64,000 nucleotides of DNA from Thermodesulfobacteriota bacterium (GCA_965263275.1 OZ253668.1:1855329-1919328), one strand, 5' to 3'; shown: positions 9,875 to 57,603, numbered from the stretch's first letter. Program-made: numbers and translations. Notes: generated by a model from the letters alone, not told the origin.

Positions 9875-10246
9875 TTCGGATCGGGCACGATAGCCTATCA
9901 TTAAACACACATTGTAAAGTCTCCATCGAATTTTCCATCGTTTTGATTAAAAGGACCGGGGCTGAAGGGCTCGTGTTCCTAGCCAGCTGTGGTGACAGTA
10001 CCAGAGAAGGAAAGGTACCCGTTCTTATCTCTTGAGAGGAAAGGGATGGGATGAAGGCACTTATATGGTTCTGTCCGCGGGCAGTTGGCGGAGAAGATGT
10101 ATTCGGGCCGTGGCTGTGTTCCTGCACATAGTTAATCATGAAATCCCCCAGAGTGCCTTGACTCTGAGCCGGTTTTGAGTTTAAAATAGAAACGAACGGT
10201 TGGTTGTTACTTGCTGGTCATTACAAAACTGGAAGGTTCCGATCAA

Positions 10247-10278: not shown

Positions 10279-11169
10279 ATGAAAGGAATAAGAGGCGTTG
10301 GAAAAACGGTTTTGATTATGGTGACCTTTTTTCTTTTTAGTTCTTGGAATGCCTTGGCACAAGACATAGATAATACGGTAGAGACTGTGTGGTCGGCAAC
10401 TATGACGGTAGGCAGCTTTACCGCCCGTGACGGCACGGTTTACCTCGGATATGAATCCGGCATATTCCTAGGCGATCTCACCGACAACAATTTCTCTTAT
10501 GAAGGTGTTAATTACCGAGTTAAGGGAATCGTGAAGCTCGGGGATAAGATGAGGTTAGATTTCCTTAATAATGAAGTGGGTTTCAAAACAGCATGGAACA
10601 GCTACAACAAAACTTTTTATCTGAATATCGGGGATTCCGTGCAGCTTGATTTCAGGGACCGGACCATTCCTAGTGCTGACGAAGATGAAGACTATGGATT
10701 GCACGAGGATGAGGTGCGGCGTGAATGGATAGGCCAATCCTCTTATGACTGGGCTGATGGTCAGGAAATCATTGTAAGCATAACTACCAAATATCTTGAC
10801 GGTGCTCTTAAGTTGCCTTTGGATTTGTCTCTTCAGAGCGGTACTGTGACAGCCGGGACAATCGGACGATTAAAGATATTTGATGACACCGATGGTGACG
10901 GCACTGGGCGGTGGAAAAGAATATGCGATGACAATTGGGGAGATGCGGACGCGGTGGTTGCGTGCAGCCAGTTAGGCCTCTCTGGGGGCAGTGCGAGAAC
11001 CGGGAATCAGAGTTCACACCTGAGCATCAGTACCGCGGAAACCTTCTTGCTGGACCAAGTGGAATGCGTTGGTACGGAAGACAGGGTAATTGACTGTCCT
11101 CATGATGGCCGTGACGTGCACGATTGCGCTGCATGGGAAATTGCCGGGGTTGAATGTACTTCCCCTTAA
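10279..11169 (+). CDS. Secreted protein with a C-terminal SRCR (scavenger receptor cysteine-rich) domain
   Basis: RBS AAGGAGG precedes the ATG. Signal peptide MKGIRGVGKTVLIMVTFFLFSSWNALA. The C-terminal ~100 aa (GRLKIFDD...GRWKRICDDNWGDADAVVACSQLG...LLDQVECVGTEDRVIDCPHDG...HDC...IAGVEC) follows the SRCR consensus. Confidence 0.8.
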   Translation: MKGIRGVGKTVLIMVTFFLFSSWNALAQDIDNTVETVWSATMTVGSFTARDGTVYLGYESGIFLGDLTDNNFSYEGVNYRVKGIVKLGDKMRLDFLNNEVGFKTAWNSYNKTFYLNIGDSVQLDFRDRTIPSADEDEDYGLHEDEVRREWIGQSSYDWADGQEIIVSITTKYLDGALKLPLDLSLQSGTVTAGTIGRLKIFDDTDGDGTGRWKRICDDNWGDADAVVACSQLGLSGGSARTGNQSSHLSISTAETFLLDQVECVGTEDRVIDCPHDGRDVHDCAAWEIAGVECTSP

Positions 11170-11197
11170 ACCGTTTCAATAAAACTTGGGAGTTAAG

Positions 11198-11540
11198 ATG
11201 GATATGAACAGATCATTAAGACTGGCGGTATTTCTGTGTGTTCTTGCGGTTGCATTCTGATGGGTGCGTCGCTGTGGCCAGTGACACTCCCGGGCGTATA
11301 ACGGCCGGGGAAGTTGCGATGATGAAAGTCTGAGAGAATTCGTTGAATATGCGGTGGGGTGTCTTCAGGTACTCTGCCAGTTTTACCGAGGTGTTAGACC
11401 TGCTGTACGGTCTCAGGGAAGAGGGAGGAGACTGGAATGACGGAGCGTACGGTTTGGGCGACCGAGCGACGAAAACTTCGTGATCCATAGTACTGAGACA
11501 CTTCTCTTTTTCTTTAGAGTTATTTCAAAGCCCTGAACCT
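11198..11540 (+). pseudogene. Decayed remnant of a Cache-like 'GDWNDG' family gene; paralog of the gene at 40100
   Basis: Hand translation across three frames gives MDMNRSLRLAVFLCVLAVAF*, ..SDTPGRITAGEVAMMKV*, SLREFVEYAVG.., TEVLDLLYGLREEGGDWNDGAY.. and ENFVIHST. These are colinear with MKNLKFLVLLFC...RDPGLTATVRDASASLEDFVKHAAS...VLQLLKEFRNENGDWNDGSTY...VYIHP of the 40100 gene. Confidence 0.55.
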
Positions 11541-12780: not shown

Positions 12781-15415
12781 TCAGGTCCATTTCTCTTCTA
12801 GCCGGGTTCTCCGCGAAATCGCAATCAGGGAAAGCATAATTAAAAGCAGGTTAAGCAGGGTGTTTTCCGGCATATTCCCCGCTCCCATATCCACAGCAAT
12901 CGCGCATCCCCCCCCCGTCTGTGGTTGTCGGTTGTTGCGTCTCTAATGGTGGATGCGACTGTTCTGTCGGTTGTTGCGGTTCTGATGGTGGATGCGACTG
13001 TTCTGTCGGTTGTTGCGTCTCTGTCGGTGGCGGCGGTGGCGGTGGTGGTGGTGGCGGTGGTGGCGGCGGCGGTGGTGGCGGCGGTGGTGGTGGCGGCGGC
13101 GGCGGAGAAGAAACATCGCCGAAGACCCAGGGACGGGCCTGCTTGATCGCCAGGATATTCTCGCTGGTGATCTTGAACTCTATTTCCATGGCGAACGGTT
13201 CATCGGCCGCGGGGTTGTACAGCCCCGCGAAGTGGTCATGGATCACTGTGAGGTGATCGCGCAACTGTATCAGTTGCGCGTCACTCATCAGGAGTTGCCC
13301 TGGCTCCACCAGGTTGGAGGTGGTAAGTACCCTGTATGTTCCATCCTTGTTCAACAGGATTTCCTCTGGCACCGAGAGCGCGTCGGGATTGGTGACCAGA
13401 TCCTCGCCGAGCTGCGTGTTGACGTAGTACCAGTCGTCACTGCCGGAGGTCAGGTCGGTCGGGTCAAAGCTGACGGCCACCCCGTTGGCCAACTCGTCTT
13501 TGTAGTTGGGATGGACCAGCACCCCCATCGCCGCGGCCAGATGATCGATGCGATAAAACTCGCGCTCGGTGAAGGCCCGGAAGGTCCACAGGCTCGCAAA
13601 CACCCCCTTGAGGGACTTGTCGATGCCGTCCTCCACCGTCTCATCGGGATTCTGGGTCTTGGAGTCGTACAGGCCCGCCCCGTTAAAGCCCGGCAGGTCT
13701 TCGTTGTTCGTGCTTGATCGGTAGCGTAGTGATTGCCCCTCCGGATACGTGGCGTGCATGGTGGTCAGGGCGTCGATTATCCCCTGGGGCGAGTCCGCGT
13801 CCTCGATATCGTCGCGCAGATCGTCGAGCATGTCGTCCTGGACGTCGAAGTCCGTCTGGAAGTCTGGGTCAGCCAGCATGGTTTCAATGCGGGCATAGAA
13901 ATCGTGGGCCTTCATGAACTCGTCGTAGAAATAAAACGGGATCGCAAACCCGTCGGGAACCGTCCCCTCGGGAAAACCAAGTGTCCCCAGCACGGCCACA
14001 TTCGCTGCCTTGACGCCGAATGCGGTCCAGTCCTCAAAGCCGATCTCACTGAGGGGCGTGATCTCGGTGACGGAGAGATCCCGTTCCGGCGTTTGTTCTG
14101 TGGCGGGTCGGGAAGACTCGTAGTGCGCGTCGACTTCTGCAACCGTGGCGGCCCCTATTTCCCATCCGTTCTCTGTCACTTCATAGCGGACGTAACTGCC
14201 GATGAGGGGCGCGATGGCAGGGTCGTCGCGGATGTCCCGGATGTAGGCGTTGGGGATGCCGTTCTGCACGGCGCGCAGGTTGACGTGCGAGAGCGGGGTT
14301 TGGGGCACGGTCGAGATGATGCCGGCCACGCGGGGCAGTTCGTTGGGTAGGGCCTCGTAGAGCACGATGTCGCGCGGGTGGGGCCGGTCGTCCGGGTCCA
14401 GGACTTGCAGCCGCCCGACCCCTTCCCCCGGGTTCAACGCCAGGAAGTGGATGTTGGAGTAGACGTCCCCGTCGAACACGAGGTTGATGCGGGATTCCCG
14501 GTACAACGGCAAATCGGACTGGATATACGGAAGCTCATGGTTCCGCACATACAAGGCCAAGTTGTCTTCGAGCAGCGGCATGCTGGCGGCGAGCAGCGTA
14601 TGGGTACGCTCCATAAGGCTGAAGGAGAAAGAGTAGCGGGAGGGGAGTGTATTTAACGAGTAAAGGTAGACGCCTTGGCTGCCATCGGGGGCAACGCGGT
14701 TCTGCCTATAGGCGATCGTGCCGAGAATTACCCGCTGCCGGTTGATATGCCTGTCATCCAAGAAGGTTTGATGTGTAGGGTGCGTATTGGCGTTGATGAA
14801 ATAGACACGCGGTCGGTCGGTGTCCATGCCGAGCAGAGCGAACTTGAAGTATCCTCCTATGGCAAGCGCATCGTATGTGTGCGTATCGGGAACAGCCACA
14901 GCCCCGTCGTTCAGTGGAACGTCGGTGGCAGGGTTGACTGGGTTCATGGCCCCCAGATCATTGAGCTCGGTGATGTCGTCGACACAGTCGCCGTCAACGT
15001 CAGCGGGGTCGGCGATGAGGTACTTCTCCACCCGGTAGCGCTCCTTGGGCAGCGCATCCACGTTTTCGGCCAGCGTGGTCGTGCCGGCTTCACCGCGCTT
15101 GACCAGTACCGGAATATCCACGGTCGTGTCTGCGTCCACCTCATGACTCACGTAAAGCACGAAGTAGTCGGCGGTCGTGGAGTTGACCACGATGGGAACG
15201 GCATTAACCTCTACCGCCGTCGGCGTTGTGTTATAGCTGTTTCCTGAACACATCTCTGACTGCGGGTTGCCCTGCGCCTGTATCGGCATCGGGGTGGCCA
15301 GTAGCGTGGCGAGTGCCAGCAGCGCTCCCGGTGCCGCGCGGAAAATCAGGAAGCGGGCGAGGCTTGCAAGACGGGCGAAACGCCCCCGATAGGGCTGGTG
15401 GTACTTCCGACGCAT
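12781..15415 (-). CDS. Secreted PEP/pyruvate-binding (PPDK_N, ATP-grasp) domain protein, copy A, with polyproline stalk. The C-terminal sorting tail is out of frame because of a G9 tract
   Basis: Signal peptide ...LLATPMPIQA. PPDK_N motifs FGVKAANVAVLG..VPDGFAIP, LRYRSSTNNEDLPGFNGAGLYDS, MGVLVHPNY, NGVAVSFDP, EIEFKI...ILAIKQARPW. The ORF as given stops at 12851. With 8 G instead of 9 it reads ...DGGGCAIAVDMGAGNMPENTLLNLLLIMLSLIAISRRTRLEEKWT* and ends at 12781. Confidence 0.8.
12908..12916 (-). repeat. G9 (plus-strand C9) homopolymer inside the PPDK_N copy A coding region
   Basis: Nine C by hand count. It sits exactly between the PT-rich repeats and the anchor-coding tail. Confidence 0.85.
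12917..13105 (-). repeat. Coding repeats: ~2.7 copies of a 39-bp unit (13-aa QQPTEQSHPP[SL]E[TP]) plus an 81-nt (CCR)27 polyproline tract
   Basis: 39-bp units at 12946-12984 and 12985-13023, with a partial copy at 12917-12945. Uninterrupted CCA/CCG codons 13025-13105 (27 Pro by hand count). Confidence 0.85.
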
Positions 15416-16230: not shown

Positions 16231-16365
16231 TCAGGTCCATTTCTCTTCTAGCCGGGTTCTCCGCGAAATCGCAATCAGGGAAAGCATAATTAAAAGCAGG
16301 TTAAGCAGGGTGTTTTCCGGCATATTCCCCGCTCCCATATCCACAGCAATCGCGCATCCCCCCCC
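16231..16365 (-). pseudogene. Orphan anchor-coding tail of PPDK_N copy B, severed by IS110
   Basis: Identical to 12781-12915. It ends in a C8 run that abuts the IS110 left end. In the G8 frame it encodes GCAIAVDMGAGNMPENTLLNLLLIMLSLIAISRRTR... Confidence 0.75.
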
Positions 16366-16590
16366 GATACCCTTTATCCAAGCTTAATTTAGCTAAAATT
16401 TAAGAATCAAGTTTAATAGAATTCACGGGCCACTCGATCGAGAGCTACCTGCCCCCCCTGCGCCTCTGAGCGCCTACTGGGGACTTGTGCCTCGGTCGAG
16501 TGCCGTGATGAATGATGTCCAGTAGGAAGTTCGTGCCTCTGAGCACCTCCGTATCGGAGCAGACACACACATCACGGCAAACCCGATTTA
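16366..16590 (+). ncRNA. Candidate IS110 bridge/seek RNA region (left non-coding end)
   Basis: ~225 nt upstream of the transposase with long-range complementary arms (cacgggccactcgatcgag / ctcggtcgagtgccgtg; cctactgg / ccagtagg) and duplicated gcctctgagc(g/a)cc motifs. One loop region carries a C7 run. Confidence 0.35.
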
Positions 16591-38587: not shown

Positions 38588-38877
38588 ATGTGCCGATTCT
38601 CCCTATTGTCTGAATGCGTACTAGGCTTCCGGCAAGAAATGTAGAAGCACCTGTAGCTTCCACTTTTTTTAATCAATAGGAATTTGGACTTTCTGTTAAC
38701 ATATTTGTCACGGTTCCAATGAATGCTTACGCCAAGCTTTTGTTCGCCCTGAATCCTGCTAAGCCATCCCCAGATTCTTACTTGACAATAACCCGTGTGA
38801 GCTATTATGATCTATAGGTAGGAATGGTACGTCAAGAACTGAATGTTCGTAGTTGTTTTTATAGAGGAGGCTTGTAG

Positions 38878-39915
38878 ATGGGAAAAACAATTTCAGGTAA
38901 CGAGAATTGCTTTGATAATATCGGTGTTCGAGCATGCGGAAAGAGGAAGAACCGAGCAATCTCTCTGCAGTGGTTAGATGCTTCCATCTTCAGTTGCGCG
39001 GGAATGTTGGCTGTCTTTTTCCTTGCGTTCTCACTCCTTAGCGTCGGCAATGTATGGGCGGGGGAAAGGGAATTTTTTCGAAAAAAGTTCCTTGTGAGCG
39101 AAACCACCAATGCAGAAGATTCGAACAACATACATACTGTGTATCAAGGAGGCCCTTTCACGAACGCTATATTTACCTATAATGGTGCCACCTACAGAGT
39201 TGAGCTTGTCGAGTCGGGGGATAGAGGAGTTAAGCTCAGGACGAACCCGAGCTTTCCGTCAACGCTGCAAGGGGCAAACAGAAGGGACTTTGATTTGCAT
39301 CTCGGTACTGAGGATGCTTCTGGCGATTATACCGAGAATGCCAGTTTTAATTTCAACAGGTGGAGCCAGTTATCTACAGTTCCGTCTTCTGCCAGCTACG
39401 ACACTCTATGGTCTGGGTCAGCCGGTTGGACACAGAGCGGAGAGAATGGCGTAATTCGTATAACCGGTCCGATTCTTAACAACGACCTTCAGTTCTCGCC
39501 TTACCTCCCGTTACCTACTAAGAATTCAGACGGGGTTGCAATTTCGGGTCGGCTTGAAATATTTGATGCTACGCAGGATACCGACGGCCAATGGAAGTGG
39601 ATATGCGACGATGGTTTTGGGGATGATGAGGCAAAGGTCGCATGCGGACAGCTGGGTCTTCCTGCAAGCGGAGCTACAACCATGGATCTGCCGGACGATT
39701 GGTTAGCAATTCCCGATAATCTTACTGGCTTCAAAGCTTTGCTTACTGCCGCAGCCATAACTTACTATTCAAGTGTTCCGGCTCTGCTCGATGACGTAGA
39801 TTGCGATGGTACGGAATCCCGGCTGATTAACTGTAACCATGCGGGGCGTGGAGCAACCGATTGCGATATATCGGAATCAGTTGCTGTCATCTGTCAGGAA
39901 GAAGCTTCCGAGTGA
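38878..39915 (+). CDS. Secreted/anchored protein with a C-terminal SRCR domain; paralog of 10279-11169
   Basis: GGAGG RBS; hydrophobic N-terminal segment. SRCR-like GRLEIFDATQDTDGQWKWICDDGFGDDEAKVACGQLG...LLDDVDCDGTESRLINCNHAG...DC...VAVIC. Shares the F[ST]Y.G..YRV motif with the first SRCR protein. Confidence 0.8.
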   Translation: MGKTISGNENCFDNIGVRACGKRKNRAISLQWLDASIFSCAGMLAVFFLAFSLLSVGNVWAGEREFFRKKFLVSETTNAEDSNNIHTVYQGGPFTNAIFTYNGATYRVELVESGDRGVKLRTNPSFPSTLQGANRRDFDLHLGTEDASGDYTENASFNFNRWSQLSTVPSSASYDTLWSGSAGWTQSGENGVIRITGPILNNDLQFSPYLPLPTKNSDGVAISGRLEIFDATQDTDGQWKWICDDGFGDDEAKVACGQLGLPASGATTMDLPDDWLAIPDNLTGFKALLTAAAITYYSSVPALLDDVDCDGTESRLINCNHAGRGATDCDISESVAVICQEEASE

Positions 39916-40099
39916 TAATTAATACCCGTGAGACGGCATTTGTCTGCAAGGCAGAGTTCCCAACGGACTATGCTGGGCGTCCACCACACGTTGTGGCAAC
40001 CTTGAGAGGCAGTTAAGAATATGGGCCCATTCCGATGCTTCAGGCCGCTGTGTCCAAGGAAGAGATAGCCGAGTTTCATAATTGATTTGCGGGGATTTG

Positions 40100-40815
40100 A
40101 TGAAAAACTTAAAGTTTTTGGTTCTTTTATTTTGCACAGCGGGGCTCTTTGGCGTTAATACAGCTTTCGCCCATACCCACAGGGATCCCGGTTTAACGGC
40201 AACGGTTAGAGATGCCAGTGCGAGTCTTGAAGATTTCGTAAAGCATGCGGCTTCGCATCTGTCAGAAGCCACAAGCTTTGAGGGAGTCTTGCAGTTGCTA
40301 AAGGAGTTCAGAAATGAGAACGGGGACTGGAACGATGGTTCCACCTACCTTATTTTGCTCACAAGGGGAGGCGGGGTGTACATTCATCCTAAGAGCAGGG
40401 AAGTAGAAGATCAGGATTGGTCTGAACTTCTTTCGGGATGTTCTCAAGGGAGCTGGCATGATCTTGTAACGGCCGGCGGAGGCTGTGTGGAAGGTCAGGG
40501 AGAAGGGAGTCGGGGTTATGCAGTTTCTTTTTCCGCTCCATATATTCCTTTTGCGAATTCAAGAAGCAAGGAAAAAGATTTTGTTCTGGTAGGAGGTCTT
40601 GATTATATGCCCAGGGCTGATACTCCTGCTTCCTTTAAAAAGATGGTGGATGATCTGGTTGACAGCTATGTCAGAAGGCTGATAGGCAGTGATGTGGATC
40701 TTGATGACCCGGCGATTTCACAGAGTCGCATGGAGTTCAGAGATAATTTCTTTGCTTTGGTGGTTCCCGAAATAGATTCCAGAGATGTCAGCGGAGAAGA
40801 GGATCTGAATGTAGC
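40100..40815 (+). pseudogene. Cache-like 'GDWNDG' surface protein, 5' part, interrupted by IS21
   Basis: Signal peptide MKNLKFLVLLFCTAGLFGVNTAFA, then a sCache-like module (...NGDWNDGSTYLILLTRGGGVYIHP...). The ORF then runs into the IS21 terminal repeat. Confidence 0.75.
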
Positions 40816-40978
40816 GCGACAAACAAGATGAGACTCTCGGCGTCGCGACGACAGAACGATACCGAGGTATTTTGGGGATTGCAAAAATATTTTTCCAATG
40901 ATGTTTCCGCCAAGGTGCGCGGGAAGGGCCGGCCCCGGATATCCGGGGCCGGACAACAGCCTGTTCGGGGGGTGGGGG

Positions 40979-41806
40979 TCAGCCGGATGTGTCGCTTTCG
41001 GTGGCGAACTTCGCGGGTCTTCCCTGTTTTTTCTTCTGTTCCATGGCTTGACGGCGTCTGTAGCTCTCCACGTTCATCTCAAGTATCACGCAGTGATGCA
41101 CAAGGCGATCCACCGCTGCCACCGCGGTGTTTTCGTCAGGAAACACCTTTGTCCATTCGGTAAACGGCTGATTGGCGGTAATGAGCACGGAACGTTGCTC
41201 ATAACGGACCGATATCAGTTCGAACAGCACGCTTGTTTCGGCGTGATCTTTGCGCACGTAGGCCAGATCGTCAAGAATCAGCAGGTCGTAGCGGTCAAGC
41301 CTGTTGAGCATGTTCTCAAGGGACAGTTCCCTTTGAGCCGTCTGGAGCTTCTGAACAAGATCCGTCGTACGGGTGAACAGCACCCGTTTCTCCTTCTCCA
41401 CCAGAGACAAGCCGATTGCCGAAGCCAGATGACTCTTGCCCGCCCCCGGAGGGCCGAAGATTATCACATTGTGTCCGCCTCTTAGCCACGAATCGTTTGA
41501 AGCCAGGGCCATGACCGTGGGTTTGGATATAGTGGGAACCGCGTCAAAGTCGAAGTTCTCAAGGGTTTTTCCTGGAAGAAGACGGGCTTCGCCCAAGTGG
41601 CGGCGTATCCTGCGCCGCTGCCGCTCGGCAAGTTCAAGATCCGCGAGAGTTGCGAGCAGCCGGGCCGCGGGCCACCCCTCGGTATCCGCCCGTTCGGCGA
41701 ACCGCTCCCACATCTGCCTGATCGCGGGCAGCCGAAGTTCGCGGAACATGAGGTCAAGGTCGGCTTTTCCGATCTCCACCACCTTTTCATTGGGTTTCGT
41801 ATTCAT
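40979..41806 (-). CDS. istB: IS21 helper ATPase IstB
   Basis: Walker A GPPGAGKSHLA, Walker B LLILDDL. Confidence 0.92.
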   Translation of the reverse strand: MNTKPNEKVVEIGKADLDLMFRELRLPAIRQMWERFAERADTEGWPAARLLATLADLELAERQRRRIRRHLGEARLLPGKTLENFDFDAVPTISKPTVMALASNDSWLRGGHNVIIFGPPGAGKSHLASAIGLSLVEKEKRVLFTRTTDLVQKLQTAQRELSLENMLNRLDRYDLLILDDLAYVRKDHAETSVLFELISVRYEQRSVLITANQPFTEWTKVFPDENTAVAAVDRLVHHCVILEMNVESYRRRQAMEQKKKQGRPAKFATESDTSG

Positions 41807-43305
41807 CTCTGTCCTCCCGTTTCAAATAAAGAGCCGTAATTGTCGAGGCGGCCTCTATGGACGTCGACTCCGGGCATAGGCCCCGTTTTCACCGTGAACC
41901 GTTCTTTGAGCTCATCGATGTCGGGAAGTTCTCCCACAGAAACGCATTTCCCTATCGCCGAAGCCAGCTGGGCTTCGCAACTGTAATCATGGGCCAGAGC
42001 CAGAAGCTTTACCGCGACTCCGCATGCCTCCCGCCCCGAGAGAAGTTCAACAGCAAGCTCAAAACAACGCTTGTACTCCTCCCGGGGAAACAGCTCATCA
42101 CGGTAAACCAGATTCATAAACGCCCCCGGCTTGCGCCGAAGCGAATGAATCACGTGATGATAATTGACCGCGTAAGCCGTTTTCTCCGAAGATCCTCTTC
42201 TCCTGCGCTCAAGGGTAAGCAGATGACGGTCTCCCAGGTACAACTCTACTCTCTCATCGTAAAGACGCGCCGCGAGACGATGCCCTATGAGACGAGAGGG
42301 GACCGTGTAGAACACTCCCTTGAGCATGAAACCGCCGGAAGAAGTAACCCTTACGCTTTCACGCCGATAAAACTCCCCGTCCTGGGGCGGAAGAGACCCA
42401 AGCACCTTGCGCTCGGTCTCTATGCGCTCCACGCGCCGGGCGTTTAGACCGCTTAGCAGTTCCGCTATGAAGTCGCGGTAAGAATCAAGATCTGCAAAGT
42501 CCCGGGAACCCCGAAGCGCCAAAGCGTCCCCTATCTCCCTTTTCAGGTGACCGTGAGAACTCTCTATCGCCCCGTTTTCGTGGGCGACCCCGCGGTTGTT
42601 GCGCGTCGGCGCCATCCCGTAATGGGCGCAAAACTCCCTGTAGCTTGCGGTCATGTCCTCGACCTCGTCCTTGCTGAGATTGCGGAGAGCCGCCGAGAGA
42701 CTGTCGGTGCGGCACTCCCGAGGAACGCCGCCCAGCATCCCCAAAGCTTCGCTGAGACCCCGGGAGAAAGCGGCGAAGCTCTCCCCTCCAAGCACTGCCG
42801 TGGCGTGAACGAACCCCGACCAGGGGAGCCGGAAGTGATAGAGCTTGTGATCAAATCTCTTTCGGGCAATCGTGATCTCAAGGGAGTTCATGGTGGTGAA
42901 GTCGGAGATCCCCACGCGCCCCGGTTCCTTTTTCTGACGGAATATCACATCCTTGTCAGCGCCATGTTCAGCCCTCCATGCCTTTATACGCCTCTCAAGA
43001 GTCCTGCGAACTCCCGGGTCAAGCTGGGGATTTTCTCTCATTATTTCGCGGAACACCGCGACGGAACGTATATCCGGACAGTTCTTGAGAATGGGAACTA
43101 CCCGGGAATCGAAAATGCCATCCAGAGGATCGGGACGTCGGCTCCCCCGGGGCTTGTTTTTAGTTCCTGATTGCGGGTCCTTGGAGATTCGGAAACCGGT
43201 AGAGCGGCTGAAACCCGCTTTGGCAGCCGCGGTTTCCGTAGAACAAGTTTGTTTGAGCTTCATGAATTTCCTCCTTTGCTCGTCAGTTATATGTTGACCT
43301 GCCAT
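41803..43305 (-). CDS. istA: IS21 transposase IstA
   Basis: HTH N-terminus (MAGQHITDEQRRKFMKLK...) and a DDE integrase core. 4-nt overlap with istB. ATG at 43305 preferred over 43443. Confidence 0.9.
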   Translation of the reverse strand: MAGQHITDEQRRKFMKLKQTCSTETAAAKAGFSRSTGFRISKDPQSGTKNKPRGSRRPDPLDGIFDSRVVPILKNCPDIRSVAVFREIMRENPQLDPGVRRTLERRIKAWRAEHGADKDVIFRQKKEPGRVGISDFTTMNSLEITIARKRFDHKLYHFRLPWSGFVHATAVLGGESFAAFSRGLSEALGMLGGVPRECRTDSLSAALRNLSKDEVEDMTASYREFCAHYGMAPTRNNRGVAHENGAIESSHGHLKREIGDALALRGSRDFADLDSYRDFIAELLSGLNARRVERIETERKVLGSLPPQDGEFYRRESVRVTSSGGFMLKGVFYTVPSRLIGHRLAARLYDERVELYLGDRHLLTLERRRRGSSEKTAYAVNYHHVIHSLRRKPGAFMNLVYRDELFPREEYKRCFELAVELLSGREACGVAVKLLALAHDYSCEAQLASAIGKCVSVGELPDIDELKERFTVKTGPMPGVDVHRGRLDNYGSLFETGGQR

Positions 43306-43487
43306 CGTGAACCTCCCGCTCAATAGATTGAGCGGGGTTCTTACCCGGCCGGTCGTGAACACCGAAAGAAATTCAAAAAAATCTGGAGAGATGCTGTCTG
43401 AAACGGAAGGAGGGCGTAGCCCGACTGGAGTTTCAGACAGCATCTCCCCAGAGTCTCATCTTGTTTGTCGCAAAAGTCCTAAGTTGA

Positions 43488-44105
43488 TTGTCGCTGTACA
43501 TGAAGCAGTTTTTAGAGAAAGCCTATTCGCTTATGACGGCATCCTTTTCTGTTGACCTGTTTGATCCTGTGATACTGCGCAGGGTTTTCAGGTTTGAAGG
43601 AGGACCCTGGAGGAATGACTCTACCTATATCTATATAATGGATGACAAGGGGAACACTATATTTAACGGTGCGAATAGAGACATTGAGCAGACGAATTTA
43701 CTGCATGATCATGGTCCTGAGATTGCGCGGATAGCTGTGGATATCAGAGCCGCGGCTATGACGAGGACGGAGGATGGAAATAGTTTCGTCGGAGGTTTTG
43801 TGAATTACAATTGGGATGATCCTGCTGTGATAGGAGACGAGGGTGATGGTCGTCCGGGAGGTTCTTCTCCAAAGCTTGCTTTTGTAAAAGCCTTTACAGT
43901 TGCGGTTGATAAGGACAAACCAGTGGATAATCCACGCATCTATATTTTTGGTTCAGGACTTTACTTGGGCGGTTTGCAGGGTGACGATGGAGACGGAGGG
44001 TGTGTGATTGCGGGGACGGAAAACAGTCTTGGAAGCACTGTAGTTAACCTGCTTCTGGTTGTATCCGGTATCTTTTTCGTTGCCTTTATTCGGCACAAGA
44101 GTTGA
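43488..44105 (+). pseudogene. Cache-like surface protein, 3' part (second Cache-like module plus the GGC sorting tail)
   Basis: ...GGPWRNDSTYIYIMDDKGNTIFNG... and C-terminus GDGGCVIAGTENSLGSTVVNLLLVVSGIFFVAFIRHKS*. No upstream start or signal peptide of its own. Confidence 0.7.
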
Positions 44106-50787: not shown

Positions 50788-51579
50788 CTACTTTCTGTAG
50801 GGCGAGAAATCAGGCGGCCTTTTCTCTGTAAACGCCTCGGTTCCCTCCGCGGCTTCCGCGGTAGTCTTGAAAAGATCGAGCGATGCCTTTCCCATGCTCG
50901 ATATGCCGAAAAGACCGTCGGTTTCTGAGTTAAAGGAGTACTTGGCAAGCTTAAGAGCCGTCGGGCTTTTTAAGAGCAGTTCCTCGCACCAGGCGTTTAC
51001 TTCCGAGTCAAGTTCCTCCGCGGGGACGACCCTGTTTACAAGTCCCATCTCAAGGGCTTCAGCGGCCGAGTACTGTCTGCAGAGATACCACATCTCCCTT
51101 GCCTTTCTCTCCCCGATCAGCCTTGAGAGATAAGCCGTTCCGAAGCCCGGGTCAACGCTTCCGACCTTGGGACCCACCTGCCCGAAAACCGAATCCTCAG
51201 AGGCGATGGTGAGATCGCACATGAACTGCAGTATGTTTCCCCCGCCTATTGCGTAGCCCCTTACCGCCGCTACGACCGGCTTCGGTATGTTTCTTATGAG
51301 ATAGTGAAGATGGGAAACGTAATCCCCAACTCCAAGAAGGCCGTCTTTTCCCCCTGAGCCCGCTTTTTTCTTCTTAAGATCTCCTCCGCTGCAAAAGGCC
51401 TTCCCGCCCGCGCCCCGGAGAACCACAACCCCGATCTGCCCATCTCCCCACGCGTCGGTAAAGGCCGTGATCATCTCATGGAGCGTCACGTCCCGAAAGG
51501 CGTTTCGGGTTTTGGGGCGGTTAATCGTCACGAAGGCCACTCCGCCCGTTTTTTCATAGATTATGTCTTCGAAATTCAT
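50788..51579 (-). CDS. menB: 1,4-dihydroxy-2-naphthoyl-CoA synthase (crotonase fold)
   Basis: FEDIIYEK..GVAFVTINRP..RNAF, AFCSGGD, GQVGPKVGSVDPGFG and FTEKRPPDF follow the MenB pattern closely. Confidence 0.8.
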   Translation of the reverse strand: MNFEDIIYEKTGGVAFVTINRPKTRNAFRDVTLHEMITAFTDAWGDGQIGVVVLRGAGGKAFCSGGDLKKKKAGSGGKDGLLGVGDYVSHLHYLIRNIPKPVVAAVRGYAIGGGNILQFMCDLTIASEDSVFGQVGPKVGSVDPGFGTAYLSRLIGERKAREMWYLCRQYSAAEALEMGLVNRVVPAEELDSEVNAWCEELLLKSPTALKLAKYSFNSETDGLFGISSMGKASLDLFKTTAEAAEGTEAFTEKRPPDFSPYRK

Positions 51580-51582
51580 CGG

Positions 51583-53058
51583 CTACCCTTTATACCACTT
51601 CCCGGTACTCTCCCCGGTGAATATGTTAACGCACTTGGTCTCAAGGTAGTTGTCTATTCCTTCAGCTCCTAGTTCCTTCCCGATTCCGCTCTGCTTAAAG
51701 CCCCCGTAGGGAGTCTCGGGGGTTATCCCCCCGTAGGTGTTTACCCAGAGGTAGCCTGCCTTTACGGCCTTCGCCATCCGGAGCGCGCGGTTTATGTCTC
51801 TGGTCCAGATTCCTCCCGCGAGTCCGTATTCAACGTCGTTTGCCATCGTGACGGCCTCTTCCTCGGACTTAAAGGGCATGACGCAGACCACCGGCCCGAA
51901 AACCTCCTCGCACGCGAGGGTAGAACCCGGCGGGACGTCCTCAAGAACTGTCGGCGCTATGTAGTAACCCTTCTCGAATCCCTCGGGGCGGTCTCCGCCC
52001 GCGATCACCCGCGCCCCTTCTGAGACGCCTTTTTCGATGTAATTCATCACGCTCTCGTAGTGTTCTTTTGAGATTACGGTCCCGAACTCAGTTTCGGGAT
52101 CTTCGGGGTCCCCGATTCTTATCCTCGAGATCCTGTCAAGGTAGGCGGAGAGAAACTCGTCGTATATCTCCTCGTGGAGCATGAGCCTGGTTACGGCGGT
52201 GCAGTTCTCTCCCTGGTTGAAAAACCCTCCGCGAAGACACGCCTCGACGGCTCCCTCGACGTCAGCGTCGGGAAAAACCATGCAGGGGGCCTTGCCTCCA
52301 AGTTCCAGGGATACCTTTTTTATTCCCCCAGCCGCCGTCCTCATCACGTTTTTTCCGACTTCTGTGGAACCCGTAAACGCTATCTTGCCTACCCCGGGGT
52401 GCTCGGTAAGCGCCTGGCCGGCTACGGATCCCTTTCCGGGCACCACGTTCAGCACCCCGTCCGGAAGTCCGGCCTCGGAGCAGAGCTTTGCCACCTCGAC
52501 GATTCCGCACGAAGTGAGTTCCGCGGGTTTTATTACCATGGTGCATCCGGCCACGAGCGCGGGGGCTATTTTCCAGAAGGAAAGAAGAAGGGGGAAATTC
52601 CACGGGATTATGTGCGCCGCTACGCCCACGGGTTCTTTTATGGTTAGGGATATCTGGTTTTCGTTTACCTGCAGGGTTTCTCCGTTAAGACGGGTGTGAG
52701 CTCCCGAGTAATACTCAAGCGTTCTTATCGAACCGCCTATTTCAACCGCGGCGCTCTCGCGGATTGGCTTTCCGGTCTCGCGAGTGTTTACAAGGGCGAT
52801 CTTGTCCCTGTTATCCGAGAGTACCTGGGCGATCCGAAGAAGGTACTTGGCGCGCTCGGATGCCGGGAGACGAGACCACTTGGGAAAAGCGCGCTCGGCG
52901 GCCCGAACCGCTGCGTCGATGTCTTCCGGTCCTCCCTGAGCGACTTGAGCGAAGGGTTTTTCCGTCGCGGGGTTTTCTCTTGTGGAGTAGGTGCCGCTTT
53001 GCGGTTCCCTTTCCCCGCCGTCGATGAAAAGGGCGCACTTTATCTCCGTACCGGGCAT
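51583..53058 (-). CDS. NAD(P)-dependent aldehyde dehydrogenase
   Basis: FTGSTEVGK, ELGGKAP and the GENCTA catalytic Cys context. ATG at 53058 (MPGTEIKCALFIDGG) is preferred. Confidence 0.88.
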   Translation of the reverse strand: MPGTEIKCALFIDGGEREPQSGTYSTRENPATEKPFAQVAQGGPEDIDAAVRAAERAFPKWSRLPASERAKYLLRIAQVLSDNRDKIALVNTRETGKPIRESAAVEIGGSIRTLEYYSGAHTRLNGETLQVNENQISLTIKEPVGVAAHIIPWNFPLLLSFWKIAPALVAGCTMVIKPAELTSCGIVEVAKLCSEAGLPDGVLNVVPGKGSVAGQALTEHPGVGKIAFTGSTEVGKNVMRTAAGGIKKVSLELGGKAPCMVFPDADVEGAVEACLRGGFFNQGENCTAVTRLMLHEEIYDEFLSAYLDRISRIRIGDPEDPETEFGTVISKEHYESVMNYIEKGVSEGARVIAGGDRPEGFEKGYYIAPTVLEDVPPGSTLACEEVFGPVVCVMPFKSEEEAVTMANDVEYGLAGGIWTRDINRALRMAKAVKAGYLWVNTYGGITPETPYGGFKQSGIGKELGAEGIDNYLETKCVNIFTGESTGKWYKG

Positions 53059-53279
53059 AGTTTGAGAGTTTATACCGGACAAATCTCCCGTAATCAAACC
53101 CAGACTCAGCCTGCAGGCACGACCTTGAGAATGTAATTAGGTGCTGAAAAGTCCAAGTTATTTGATCAGGAAGGCCAAATTGTCCGGAGATTGGTCAGAA
53201 ACGCGGTAGGGCAAGTGGGATGATGTCTAGGAGCCGAACTTAACTGGAAAAATATAGTGAATAGATTATTTAAATGCTC

Positions 53280-54519: not shown

Positions 54520-56088
54520 CTATACGCGCCTTCTCAAGAAGACAACCGAGAACAAAACGGATGTTATCAGGAACAGGTTAAGCAAAGTGCCTTGAGACGA
54601 CGTATTGCTGGTTCCGGCGATGGTGCATCCTCCGCCGCTAACAGCGTCTACTACCTCTTCCACTATGTCGTCCATGTCATCCATGTCGTCCATGTCATCC
54701 ATGTCGTCCATGTCATCCATGTCGTCCATGTCATCCATGTCGTCCATGTCATCCATGTCATCCATGTCATCCATCATGCCATCATCTTCCGGCGGATAAA
54801 CTCCGGAACCGAAGATGAAGGGCTGCGGAGGAAAATTAGCAGCAACAGCCATAAGAGTAACAAGAGGATTATCAGCTAGTCGAACAACTGTTTCTGCGAC
54901 CATTCCGTATAGGTCCGCCACCTCGATGTAGCTTGTCTTGGGTGACATGCCGGGAACCACTCTTTGTTCAAACCAGTCAGGAGGGTCTGGCGAGTCACCA
55001 GGCTTTAACCAGTGATATTTGACTGTAGCGGAATCTCCGATTTCTGGGCTTCCTCCTAATTCGTCGTTAAACAGTTTCGCTATGTTCTTTTCACCTTGCA
55101 GCTGATTATCATTCAAGTCAAGGTTAGCGCCGTTTAGATCAAAGTTGGTTCCGTTCACAAGCACTGTGGAATCTGCTGGATCCGCACTCATTACGAAAGC
55201 ATATATGCTTCCATACTTGAAATCCTCGCTTCCAAAACAAAAAAGCCGCTCTTGAATTTTTGTGGTTGTGATGCTATCAAGCATTTGATACTCAGCACCA
55301 GTTGGGTCGGCTAGACTAAGCAGATTGATTATGGTTGGCTTTGGGCCGAACATCTCGATCAATGCGTCCTCTGTTATATTTGCTACGTCTTTTTGAACCG
55401 CTTCTATAACACTTTTTACGTAAGCTTCAAGCTTCGTCTGGTCGCCCTCAACCTCCGCAGCGGTAGTGGTAAGATCAAGACCGGCACAGACAGGAGGATC
55501 AAAAGCGGAGTCGTTTGCATCGTGAACAAGACCTGCTATGTTCGTTACATCTACAGTATAGTCGCTCTCTACTTTAGTCGCGCAGGCTACACTGCCCTGG
55601 CCGTCGTAATCTTCTTCGCACTCCGTAGTCCCAATACCTGAACTTCTTGCTTTGTCGAGTAAAGCTTTTAAAGTAACCGCACCCTCCGAATTCGCGGCAT
55701 TCGGATTAAACTTGTGACCTATCAATCCGGGATGTCCCGCGTGATTCGTTACAAGGTTATTGTCGTTTATGCCTATTGCGTAGAAATTACCGTGCTTATA
55801 GTCTCCGCCATCTGTACTGTCTTGCCTGATATTCCTGGCGAATATTGTCAGCTCTCTGACTAGCTCGGCGCGATCCGCAACGGGATCGAATCGGTCCCTA
55901 ATCCCATTGTAGTACTCCACTATATGATTAACAAAGTCCTCCACGTCCTCTTTGACTTCAGGGTCGACCTCGTCCGCGGTTATGGTCTGACTGCCTCCGT
56001 GACTTGCGGACGCGTCAATGCTGAATGAAAAAACAAGCCCTAACGCAAAAAACAGGCTCAAAAGTATTCCGTGCATTTTAAATTTCAT
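54520..56088 (-). CDS. Double Cache-like surface protein with a (Met-Asp-Asp)12 linker and the GGC sorting tail (gene A; the only intact family member in the window)
   Basis: AGGAGG RBS; signal peptide MKFKMHGILLSLFFALGLVFSFSIDASA; two Cache-like modules. C-terminus ...GGGCTIAGTSNTSSQGTLLNLFLITSVLFSVVFLRRRV*. Confidence 0.8.
   Translation of the reverse strand: MKFKMHGILLSLFFALGLVFSFSIDASASHGGSQTITADEVDPEVKEDVEDFVNHIVEYYNGIRDRFDPVADRAELVRELTIFARNIRQDSTDGGDYKHGNFYAIGINDNNLVTNHAGHPGLIGHKFNPNAANSEGAVTLKALLDKARSSGIGTTECEEDYDGQGSVACATKVESDYTVDVTNIAGLVHDANDSAFDPPVCAGLDLTTTAAEVEGDQTKLEAYVKSVIEAVQKDVANITEDALIEMFGPKPTIINLLSLADPTGAEYQMLDSITTTKIQERLFCFGSEDFKYGSIYAFVMSADPADSTVLVNGTNFDLNGANLDLNDNQLQGEKNIAKLFNDELGGSPEIGDSATVKYHWLKPGDSPDPPDWFEQRVVPGMSPKTSYIEVADLYGMVAETVVRLADNPLVTLMAVAANFPPQPFIFGSGVYPPEDDGMMDDMDDMDDMDDMDDMDDMDDMDDMDDMDDMDDMDDIVEEVVDAVSGGGCTIAGTSNTSSQGTLLNLFLITSVLFSVVFLRRRV
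54667..54774 (-). repeat. 12 tandem copies of a 9-bp coding unit (ATG GAY GAC = Met-Asp-Asp)
   Basis: Alternating gtcgtccat / gtcatccat units on the plus strand, by hand count. Confidence 0.9.
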
Positions 56089-56245
56089 CCTGAAAATTCC
56101 TCCTGCAACTTTTTTTACTGCCATGATATCCATCATGGAGCAGAACTAACAATTCTAATTCACATTCTATTACAGGGAAATTCGGATTACAAGAAGAAAA
56201 ACAGGTTCCGGCGCGATATCCGCTTCGATGGCCATGCCGCGGAAA

Positions 56246-56547: not shown

Positions 56548-57603
56548 CTATGCGCGTCTTCTCAAAAAGACAACTGAGAACAGAACAGACGCTATCAGGA
56601 ACAAGTTGAGCAGAGTGCTCTGAGACGTATGTCCCGTCCCTGCGATGGCGCACGCTCCGTCGTCACCGTCTCCTGCCATCATGTCATCCATGTCGTCCAT
56701 GTCATCCATGTCATCCATCATGTCTGGAGGATAAATTCCGGAACCGAATATATAGAAAGCTGGATCGCCAAGTCCAGACGTATTTGTATTCTTTACCTCA
56801 ACATAGCTTGTCTTGGGCGACATGCCGGGGACCACGCTTCGTTCAAACCAGTCAGAAGGCTCCGGTTGGTCACCAGGTATCAACCAGTGATAGTCGACAA
56901 AACCTCCCTGCCCGTCCGTCAGTTGTCCGTTAACAGTTACCGCGTCGCGAATCAGCTTCGCTATATCTTGTTTATCAGCTGGATTCATCGGATCTGTTAG
57001 TCGGAAATTCAGGCCGTTCAGGTCGGAGCTTTGCCCGTTTAGAAACACGGTGGCATCTTCATCTGCGGACATGATAAAAGCGTATATGGAACCATCCTTG
57101 AAAGGTGCCATACTAAAACAAGCGGCTTCTTCTAGGGACCTTTGACCTACGAACCTACCAAATTCGGCCCGCATAGTGGGGTCAAGAGGATTTATCCCTT
57201 TCATAAAGGCTTCTGTCCCTATCCTCGTTAGTAGATCTACGGATGTCTCAATAATATCCTTTACATACTGTTTAAGATTGTCTTTGTCTTGGCTTGCATT
57301 GACGTCCACGGCTGTAACGGTCAAGGGCACTAAATTGGAACAGTCGGGAGGTAGTGCATCGCTTGGCGCGTGATTATAACCTACTATTGAGGTCACCGTT
57401 CCGCCGGCGGTGTCCCCTTTAATTGCGCATGCCCACTTGCTGCCGTTATATTGTTCGCAGTATGGAGCGGTGGTGGCGTTATCGAATAAGTTTTTTATAG
57501 TTCCGGGCGAAGAAAGATCAAATCTGTGACCATACAAATTAGTATGTAGCCCGTGATTTTTTACTGGACTGACATAGTAGTGTAAAATCAGCCCTTCATA
57601 CAT
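56548..57603 (-). pseudogene. Cache-like surface protein gene B, 5'-truncated: no signal peptide, no RBS and most of module 1 missing
   Basis: Colinear with gene A from inside module 1 (YEGLILHYYVSPVKNHGLHTNLYGHRFD ~ GNFYAIGINDNNLVTNHAGHPGLIGHKFN). C-terminus (MDD)4...DDGACAIAGTGHTSQSTLLNLFLIASVLFSVVFLRRRA*. Confidence 0.65.
56683..56718 (-). repeat. 4 tandem copies of the same 9-bp Met-Asp-Asp unit
   Basis: gtcatccat / gtcgtccat units by hand count. Confidence 0.9.

Follow-up and report, generated by a model that had tools for sequence, protein, structure and literature searches.

SRCR genes followed by Cache-like partner genes as a probable two-gene module of Candidatus Dadabacteria, with the partner disrupted at two loci of one genome

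SRCR genes and their disrupted partners

The DNA considered here, called the window in the following, is a stretch of 64,000 nucleotides (nt) from the chromosome of a Thermodesulfobacteriota bacterium (GCA_965263275.1 OZ253668.1:1855329-1919328), which contains two genes for predicted secreted proteins with an SRCR domain (SRCR1 at locus 1 and SRCR2 at locus 2). As stated in a preliminary description of this DNA, both SRCR genes precede, on the same strand, a member of one Cache-like subfamily, referred to below as the partner. The pattern coding for GDWNDG occurs at two places only in the window, and these are the two partner loci. All features are collected in Table 1.

Table 1. Features of the two SRCR-Cache loci, with positions counted from the first letter of the window
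Feature	Position	Strand	Remarks
Sigma-70-like promoter match 5' of SRCR1	10158-10187	+	TTGACT-18-TAAAAT, 10/12; consensus match only, site number not above shuffle expectation
SRCR1	10279-11169	+	Intact gene; 296 amino acids, signal peptide, N-terminal domain, single C-terminal SRCR domain
Pseudogene remnant of Cache partner (locus 1)	11198-11447	+	Start codon, signal peptide, ~80 codons up to GDWNDG; rest (~1.15 kb) deleted
Sequence like L045 region 3' of partner gene	11471-11533	+	89% identity to L045 7490-7533, 79% to L045 9905-9967; far side of deletion
Sigma-70-like promoter match 5' of SRCR2	38782-38811	+	TTGACA-18-TATGAT, 11/12; consensus match only
SRCR2	38878-39915	+	Intact gene; 345 amino acids, long N-region and signal peptide, beta-rich N-terminal domain, C-terminal SRCR domain with helical insert
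Cache partner gene, 5' part (locus 2)	40100-40809	+	Signal peptide, first sCache_2-like module with GDWNDG; family HMM E 2.3e-72; intact orthologue in L001
Left target-site duplication TGAA	40806-40809	.	Empty site in L001 = GGATCTGAAGCAG
IS21-family insertion sequence	40810-43500	-	2691 bp, TG...CA ends; internal second copy of terminal repeat at 43447-43471
istB	40979-41806	-	275 amino acids; PF01695 IstB_IS21, E 2.4e-62, 211 bits
istA transposase	41803-43443	-	546 amino acids; PF22483, E 1.2e-7, 31.8 bits; plus weak rve_3 match
Right target-site duplication TGAA	43501-43504	.	
Cache partner gene, 3' part (locus 2)	43505-44105	+	Second sCache_2-like module and C-terminal tail; Pfam dCache_2 E 2.7e-6; family HMM E 1.9e-79
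C-terminal tail coding region	43995-44102	+	GGCVIAGTENSLGSTVVN-LLLVVSGIFFVAFI-RHKS; Cys motif, hydrophobic helix, basic end; putative sorting/anchoring signal

Both SRCR proteins match Pfam PF00530 (cut-off 26.1 bits), with 59.7 bits and an E value of 3.7e-16 for SRCR1 and 56.7 bits and 3.1e-15 for SRCR2, and an identity of 32% over 276 aligned columns, covering the whole mature length, marks the two as paralogues. The AlphaFold2 model of SRCR2, which reaches a predicted local distance difference test value (pLDDT) of 73.5 overall and of 86-95 within the SRCR domain, was matched by Foldseek to the SRCR domains of DMBT1, MARCO, SCARA5 and M2BP with a probability of 1.0 and target-normalised TM-scores (TMt) of 0.69-0.80. 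Six cysteines (C243, C256, C309, C319, C329 and C339) are invariant across 19 SRCR sequences and follow the group A pattern. The Dadabacteria proteins thus contain the same domain, by Pfam and by fold, as the metazoan group A SRCR proteins (MARCO, SCARA5, DMBT1/SALSA, M2BP), including the six conserved cysteines and the signature GRLEIF...W..ICDD...A.V.C.QLG with its acidic CDD cluster. They differ from them in consisting of 300-450 residues with a signal peptide and one or two SRCR domains combined with bacterial-type beta domains, in lacking collagenous, transmembrane and protease parts as well as any anchor, and in being encoded beside a Cache protein. In other lineages, two SRCR domains are found with a beta-rich segment between them. 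Four contigs from four samples encode the same SRCR1 protein, which has homologues of 57% and 51% identity at the loci L045 and L046, respectively; SRCR2 is 98% identical to its counterpart P0001 in a sister strain. The SRCR2-like proteins fall into 18 clusters, the partner-like ones into 104.

At locus 2, the open reading frames (ORFs) 40082-40831 and 43488-44105 represent the two halves of a single partner gene, which starts with ATG at 40100 or, alternatively, with TTG at 40082. The preliminary description had recognised the split by an IS21 element, but the ends it gave (40816-43471) proved to be internal ones: this segment is bounded by a perfect 25-nt inverted repeat, with a degenerate repeat copy outside it at 43475-43501, and a join at these ends reads GC/A AAA GTC CTA AGT TGA, which leads into a stop codon. 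The true extent given in Table 1 is indicated by the target-site duplication and the restored ORF and confirmed by the empty site of the sister strain L001 (99.1-99.8% nt identity). Excising the element together with one TGAA copy yields an ORF of 442 codons, in which the reading frame from 43505 onward is continuous with 40809, and L001 carries the empty site GGATC-TGAA-GCAG within an intact partner gene for 442 amino acids, the flanking alignments overlapping by 4 nt, which is the length of the TGAA duplication. With istA and istB, TG...CA ends, repeated terminal copies of the IstA site and a 4-bp target duplication, the element shows nothing unusual for the IS21 family and represents a new copy in one strain. 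Its G+C content of 54-60% is set off from that of the flanks (46-51%); for the SRCR-Cache module, base composition provides no indication of recent horizontal transfer, its own G+C content (43-51%) being like that of the flanks, and the insertion sequence (IS) alone stands out. Only one contig was found to carry the split allele, and 2 of the 442 residues differ from the intact protein (99.5% identity), so the insertion must be very recent.

The partner at locus 1 is much more degraded. A tblastn search with the locus-2 protein aligned 25 amino acids only (56% identity, E 0.005), and the family hidden Markov model (HMM) recognised 11367-11447 with an E value of 3.5e-5 and, more weakly, two collinear pieces in other frames. 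Comparison with L045 is more informative, since window positions 11170-11440, comprising the spacer and the first 80 partner codons, align to L045 6067-6342 with 85% nt identity over 277 nt (E 1.5e-84). The remnant starting at 11198 is therefore homologous to the Cache-like partner, as had been supposed. Relative to the L045 gene it contains indels of -2, -1, -3 and +1 nt, and the similarity ends just after the GDWNDG codons and returns only at 11471-11515, corresponding to L045 7490-7533, which lies beyond the stop codon and indicates that about 1.15 kb were deleted. The SRCR1-type homologues in L045 and L046 are followed by intact partners of 406 and 401 amino acids, 34 and 64 nt downstream, respectively. 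As four contigs from four samples contain the remnant and have an identical spacing from SRCR1 to a TPR gene, and as the indels are the same in the sister strain, the lesion is, as judged from these sequences, an old one and common to all sampled strains of the species.

A block of about 110 nt reaching from the SRCR stop codon into the partner signal peptide (window 11165-11275; L045 6062-6170 and 9546-9655) is about 97% conserved when compared by eye. It is kept even beside the pseudogene partner, though the SRCR genes of the window and L045 are only 72-74% identical, and could reflect gene conversion or regulatory constraint.

Conserved adjacency in Candidatus Dadabacteria

A scan for SRCR genes in one genome per species yielded 26 loci, 25 of which are Dadabacteria-like, and in 14 of these 25 the next gene downstream on the same strand is a Cache gene. 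The SRCR-Cache order was seen in L001, L002, L007, L008 and L009, with two SRCR genes preceding the Cache gene in L007, a gap of 129 nt in L008 and an overlap of 4 nt in L009. The survey from the Cache side comprised 5 independent Cache-first loci in addition to the SRCR-first loci, and a scan of metagenome contigs with a Cache alignment gave 3 loci. An SRCR gene is located directly upstream in all of the Cache-first loci (L037, L038, L040, L041-43, L044), as it is for each member of this Cache subfamily with a readable context. Order and strand are fixed, and in most loci the two genes are between -4 and about 185 nt apart, the gap in L007 being 672 nt. The pairs occur in at least eight genomic contexts (MurJ/TPR, DUF6775/Thi4, MM-CoA mutase/QueC, IspE/UvrD, GGACT/VitK2, QueA, PALP, OAD_gamma), and since the flanking genes differ among the loci, the pairing is not simply inherited synteny at one locus. 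Two SRCR genes per Cache gene are present in L007, L010, L011, L013, L018, L037, L038 and L044, and three in L020. The named homologues of the partner bear the annotation 'Candidatus Dadabacteria bacterium', and the labels of related chromosomes are either Thermodesulfobacteriota or Dadabacteria metagenome-assembled genomes (MAGs).

The preliminary description had inferred a functional pair from the two loci of the window and tied this inference to co-occurrence beyond this genome, which has now been found in many Dadabacteria genomes with the same order, strand and short gaps. By a rough estimate for genomes of 1.5-2.4 Mb that contain a handful of family members, the probability that one of these follows a given SRCR gene by chance is well under 1%. 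Location on one strand, a constant order and short gaps or overlaps, kept across genomes and contexts, are features of an operon, and a consensus scan revealed no terminator-like site between SRCR2 and its partner gene. The SRCR-then-Cache arrangement thus represents a conserved, probably co-transcribed two-gene module of Candidatus Dadabacteria, and the conserved adjacency is strong support for a functional pairing of the two genes. The sole match from outside this group (L035, 5833-12297) is an ORF of more than 2155 amino acids in a MAG of 'Candidatus Azophilus', which contains three SRCR domains and has no Cache gene as neighbour.

The Cache partner, its C-terminal tail and neighbouring genes

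The AlphaFold2 model of an intact partner (P0019), based on 99 sequences, has a pLDDT of 87 and consists of two modules, each of which matches the sCache_2 ligand-binding domains of chemoreceptors (2QHK/4EXO, 4K08, 5G4Y) with a probability of 1.0 and TMt values of 0.59-0.67. At the level of Pfam models, the 3' fragment from locus 2 reaches 27.2 bits with PF08269 (cut-off 26.5) and the 5' fragment no more than 14.1 bits with PF17200; intact homologues of the partner carry both PF08269 and PF17200 as precomputed annotation. Each half thus shares the Cache/PAS-like fold, with its long N-terminal helix, of the sCache_2/dCache domains known from chemoreceptors and histidine kinases (2QHK/4EXO, 4K08, PscD 5G4Y, TlpA 6E09), whereas the protein as a whole differs from these receptors by its tandem modules and by the lack of an N-terminal membrane helix and of a cytoplasmic transmitter. 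Instead of these, it is equipped with a cleavable signal peptide and, in many cases, with a Cys-motif tail at the C-terminus. Pfam reports no cytoplasmic output domain, and the partner ends 3-10 residues past its C-terminal helix, or without such a helix. The preliminary description had pictured a secreted protein together with an anchored sensor or receptor. The secreted and anchored parts of this picture fit an SRCR protein with a signal peptide only and a partner with a tail in 64 of the 99 family members, but a sensor or receptor in the signalling sense finds no support, as an output domain is absent: the partner cannot transduce a signal on its own.

In the tail, a DDGGC consensus is separated by 10-13 residues from a hydrophobic helix, which is followed by basic residues, and neither the full proteins nor the isolated tails matched any of the curated NCBIfam models at E values up to 1. 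In its tripartite layout of motif (here D-D-G-G-C), helix and basic end, it resembles the known C-terminal sorting signals (PEP-CTERM/exosortase, MYXO-CTERM, GlyGly-CTERM/rhombosortase, PGF-CTERM/archaeosortase), and like these it is common to unrelated protein families in one genome, as it also ends two PPDK_N-like proteins (12851-15415, 17938-20496) and two Cache-like proteins (54520-56136, 56548-57603) of the window. It differs from them by the 10-13 residue spacer between Cys and helix and by the missing match to a curated model. The latter two genes, both on the minus strand, are tandem and distantly related Cache-like genes of another subfamily which are not linked to SRCR genes; the protein encoded at 54520-56136 contains an acidic (MDD)n repeat just before the Cys tail.

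Both PPDK_N-like genes are themselves affected close to their tails. The first one (12851-15415, minus strand; 854 amino acids with a long poly-proline run) shows a frameshift at the GGG/C of the tail (12784-12942, minus strand), which is in frame in L005, and this may be either a homopolymer sequencing error (13x long-read assembly) or a real lesion. In the second one, a large gene for a secreted protein, an IS110-family element (16366-18126; transposase 16591-17874, plus strand) splits the gene body (17938-20496, minus strand) from the GGGC tail (16234-16383, minus strand), relative to L005. In the sister strain, a different IS21-family element (L004, 15611-17954; IstB of 260 and IstA of 511 amino acids) adjoins PPDK_N-like genes; it has no DNA similarity to the copy in the window, so several IS21 lineages must move in this population. 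Past the PRPP synthase gene, the window is no longer syntenic with the 99%-identical sister strain (from 50766 in the window and from 19257 in L001): it continues with genes for an enoyl-CoA hydratase and an aldehyde dehydrogenase, and L001 with a small ORF and a Cache-like gene. A second IS21 element, suspected at 50788-53097 from the ORF sizes, was rejected, because Pfam identified just these two enzymes. The window, which is bacterial, also encodes MurJ and ribosomal protein L9.

Proposed role and causes of partner loss

From the anatomy of the loci and the conserved adjacency, which are both established, we infer co-transcription, an interaction of the two products and the existence of ligands. 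Our preferred interpretation, held with moderate confidence, is that of an extracytoplasmic SRCR-Cache binding pair whose surplus Cache copies decay through redundancy. The two products would act together outside the cytoplasm: the divergent secreted SRCR protein would be the variable part that recognises or binds a ligand of macromolecular or host origin, and the conserved tandem-Cache protein, in most cases tethered to the envelope, would bind a small ligand and be common to several SRCR paralogues. Modules would duplicate as units, followed by diversification of the SRCR copies and decay of surplus Cache copies, and such unit duplication together with one Cache protein serving several SRCR genes would make extra Cache copies dispensable. 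The losses in the window would then be unrelated events, namely an old deletion with frameshifts at 11198-11447 and a recent IS21 insertion at 40810-43500. A faster divergence of the SRCR component is seen for the window pair, whose SRCR protein shows 36-45% identity over 130-280 amino acids in 18 of 19 comparisons (50% over 103 amino acids with L020), and whose Cache protein shows 43-63% over 330-430 amino acids.

Some observations weigh against this interpretation. Averaged over all locus pairs, the two components differ little in divergence, with a local-alignment identity of 53% for SRCR and 55.5% for Cache. An adjacent Cache gene is missing at 11 of the 25 SRCR loci, and for part of those genomes the data examined contained no Cache gene, which suggests that SRCR proteins may work without a Cache partner; a search 3' of the SRCR-only loci gave no partner remnants at E values up to 1. 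Moreover, about one third of the partner proteins have no tail, so tethering cannot be essential, and a host association is documented for only some of the carriers.

The two genes might instead be neighbours merely as genes for exported envelope proteins with common regulation or a common export or sorting route, forming an islet of surface proteins without joint action. The same C-terminal tail on unrelated proteins of the window (two PPDK_N-like and two distant Cache-like ones) would fit such an islet, as would the SRCR genes without a partner. We nevertheless consider it unlikely, because simple islets do not hold a fixed order and strand with short or overlapping gaps through at least eight unrelated contexts, and because all readable members of the Cache subfamily follow an SRCR gene.

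A more specific version of the binding pair would place it in the interplay with animals. Innate recognition in animals is characterised by SRCR domains, which occur in greatly increased numbers in sponges and rarely in bacteria, and host mimicry, by analogy to other eukaryotic-like proteins, would be an attractive reading of their occurrence here. The eukaryotic-like proteins of sponge symbionts (with ankyrin, TPR, LRR, fibronectin III or cadherin repeats) likewise represent animal-type extracellular domains in bacteria, several of them from sponge metagenomes, and the SRCR gene differs from these by its fixed partner gene. One contig carrying module genes (LXNI01) is from a metagenome of the sponge Sarcotragus foetidus. 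A study of sponges recovered 22 Dadabacteria MAGs (PMC8163846), and as read from their names, the MAGs CAR2 and RHO1 and the sample labelled ROBB21 belong to this study. The SRCR-Cache modules could accordingly be imagined as a host-interaction device of sponge-associated Dadabacteria, in which the diversifying SRCR protein would mimic or engage sponge SRCR recognition, and the Cache protein, tethered by its Cys tail as a sorting signal not described before, would link the SRCR protein with the surface of the bacterium or with a small molecule from the host; we regard this device as distinctly unlikely on present evidence. The literature searched contained no paper joining Dadabacteria with SRCR proteins and none on bacterial SRCR-Cache modules; SRCR appeared in general searches only as a gene family of the sponge host, and a sponge-symbiont genome paper searched for the term did not mention it.

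As to the causes of partner loss, the locus-1 deletion and the locus-2 IS21 insertion are, from the sequences compared, real and independent losses, and further cases are found elsewhere. In the second copy of L045 (8717-9731), a second SRCR gene is followed by an ORF of 54 amino acids which fuses the partner signal peptide to the tail, with the Cache body deleted; this deletion differs from that in the window and thus represents a third independent partner loss. The IspE-SRCR-UvrD-SelO locus includes a Cache gene in L009 and L041-44 and is without it in L014, an arrangement which eight further loci appear to share, as deduced from the same size and position of the SRCR gene; among the genomes with such a Cache-less IspE-UvrD locus, at least one keeps an SRCR-Cache pair elsewhere (L017 and L023). 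In the species of the window, a third module with an intact partner of 449 amino acids lies about 190 kb from locus 1 in a sister-strain contig, and the partner is intact in most relatives. IS21 and IS110 elements occur at different sites in different strains and also disrupt another tail-bearing gene of the window, and IS elements are thus active in this population. The third intact module, the loci with several SRCR genes and one Cache gene, and the third independent deletion favor redundancy, and the two losses in the window fit redundancy combined with IS activity better than selection against the partner. Of the 'relaxed or negative selection' proposed initially, the independence of the losses therefore stands and relaxed selection is plausible via redundancy, whereas negative selection has no support.

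An adaptive loss, in which the tethered Cache protein is selected against, e.g., because the host recognises it or phages use it as a receptor, and the SRCR protein is kept, would account for the three independent losses (window loci 1 and 2 and the second copy in L045), for the nine-locus group without a Cache gene between IspE and UvrD (L014 read, eight inferred) and for the disruption of two other tail-bearing window genes just before their tails. It is very unlikely in view of the sister-strain allele, which is free of the IS and intact, of the third module of the same species, whose partner is intact, of at least 20 other loci with intact partners maintained at 43-63% identity, and of active IS21 and IS110 elements that disrupt other genes as well. 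That the Cache protein is a true sensor, which detects a small molecule and controls SRCR expression or release via a membrane partner, is suggested by the sCache_2 fold of each half, the ligand-binding domain of chemoreceptors and kinases, and is highly improbable for a protein with no output domain and 3-10 residues after a C-terminal helix that is absent in one third of the family, with no kinase, MCP or regulator gene conserved beside the pair in the loci read.

The binding pair with redundant Cache copies thus remains the preferred interpretation, and SRCR-Cache represents a lineage-specific module of known domains which has apparently not been described before. The Cys tail is an uncatalogued C-terminal signal common to several families of surface proteins. 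A bacterial SRCR family with a fixed Cache partner, some carriers of which are derived from sponges, provides a testable candidate for the molecular interplay between symbionts and hosts, and even if the module should turn out to be only an ordinary envelope operon, it would still provide a record of gene decay at the level of strains and of active IS elements in a phylum that is uncultured.

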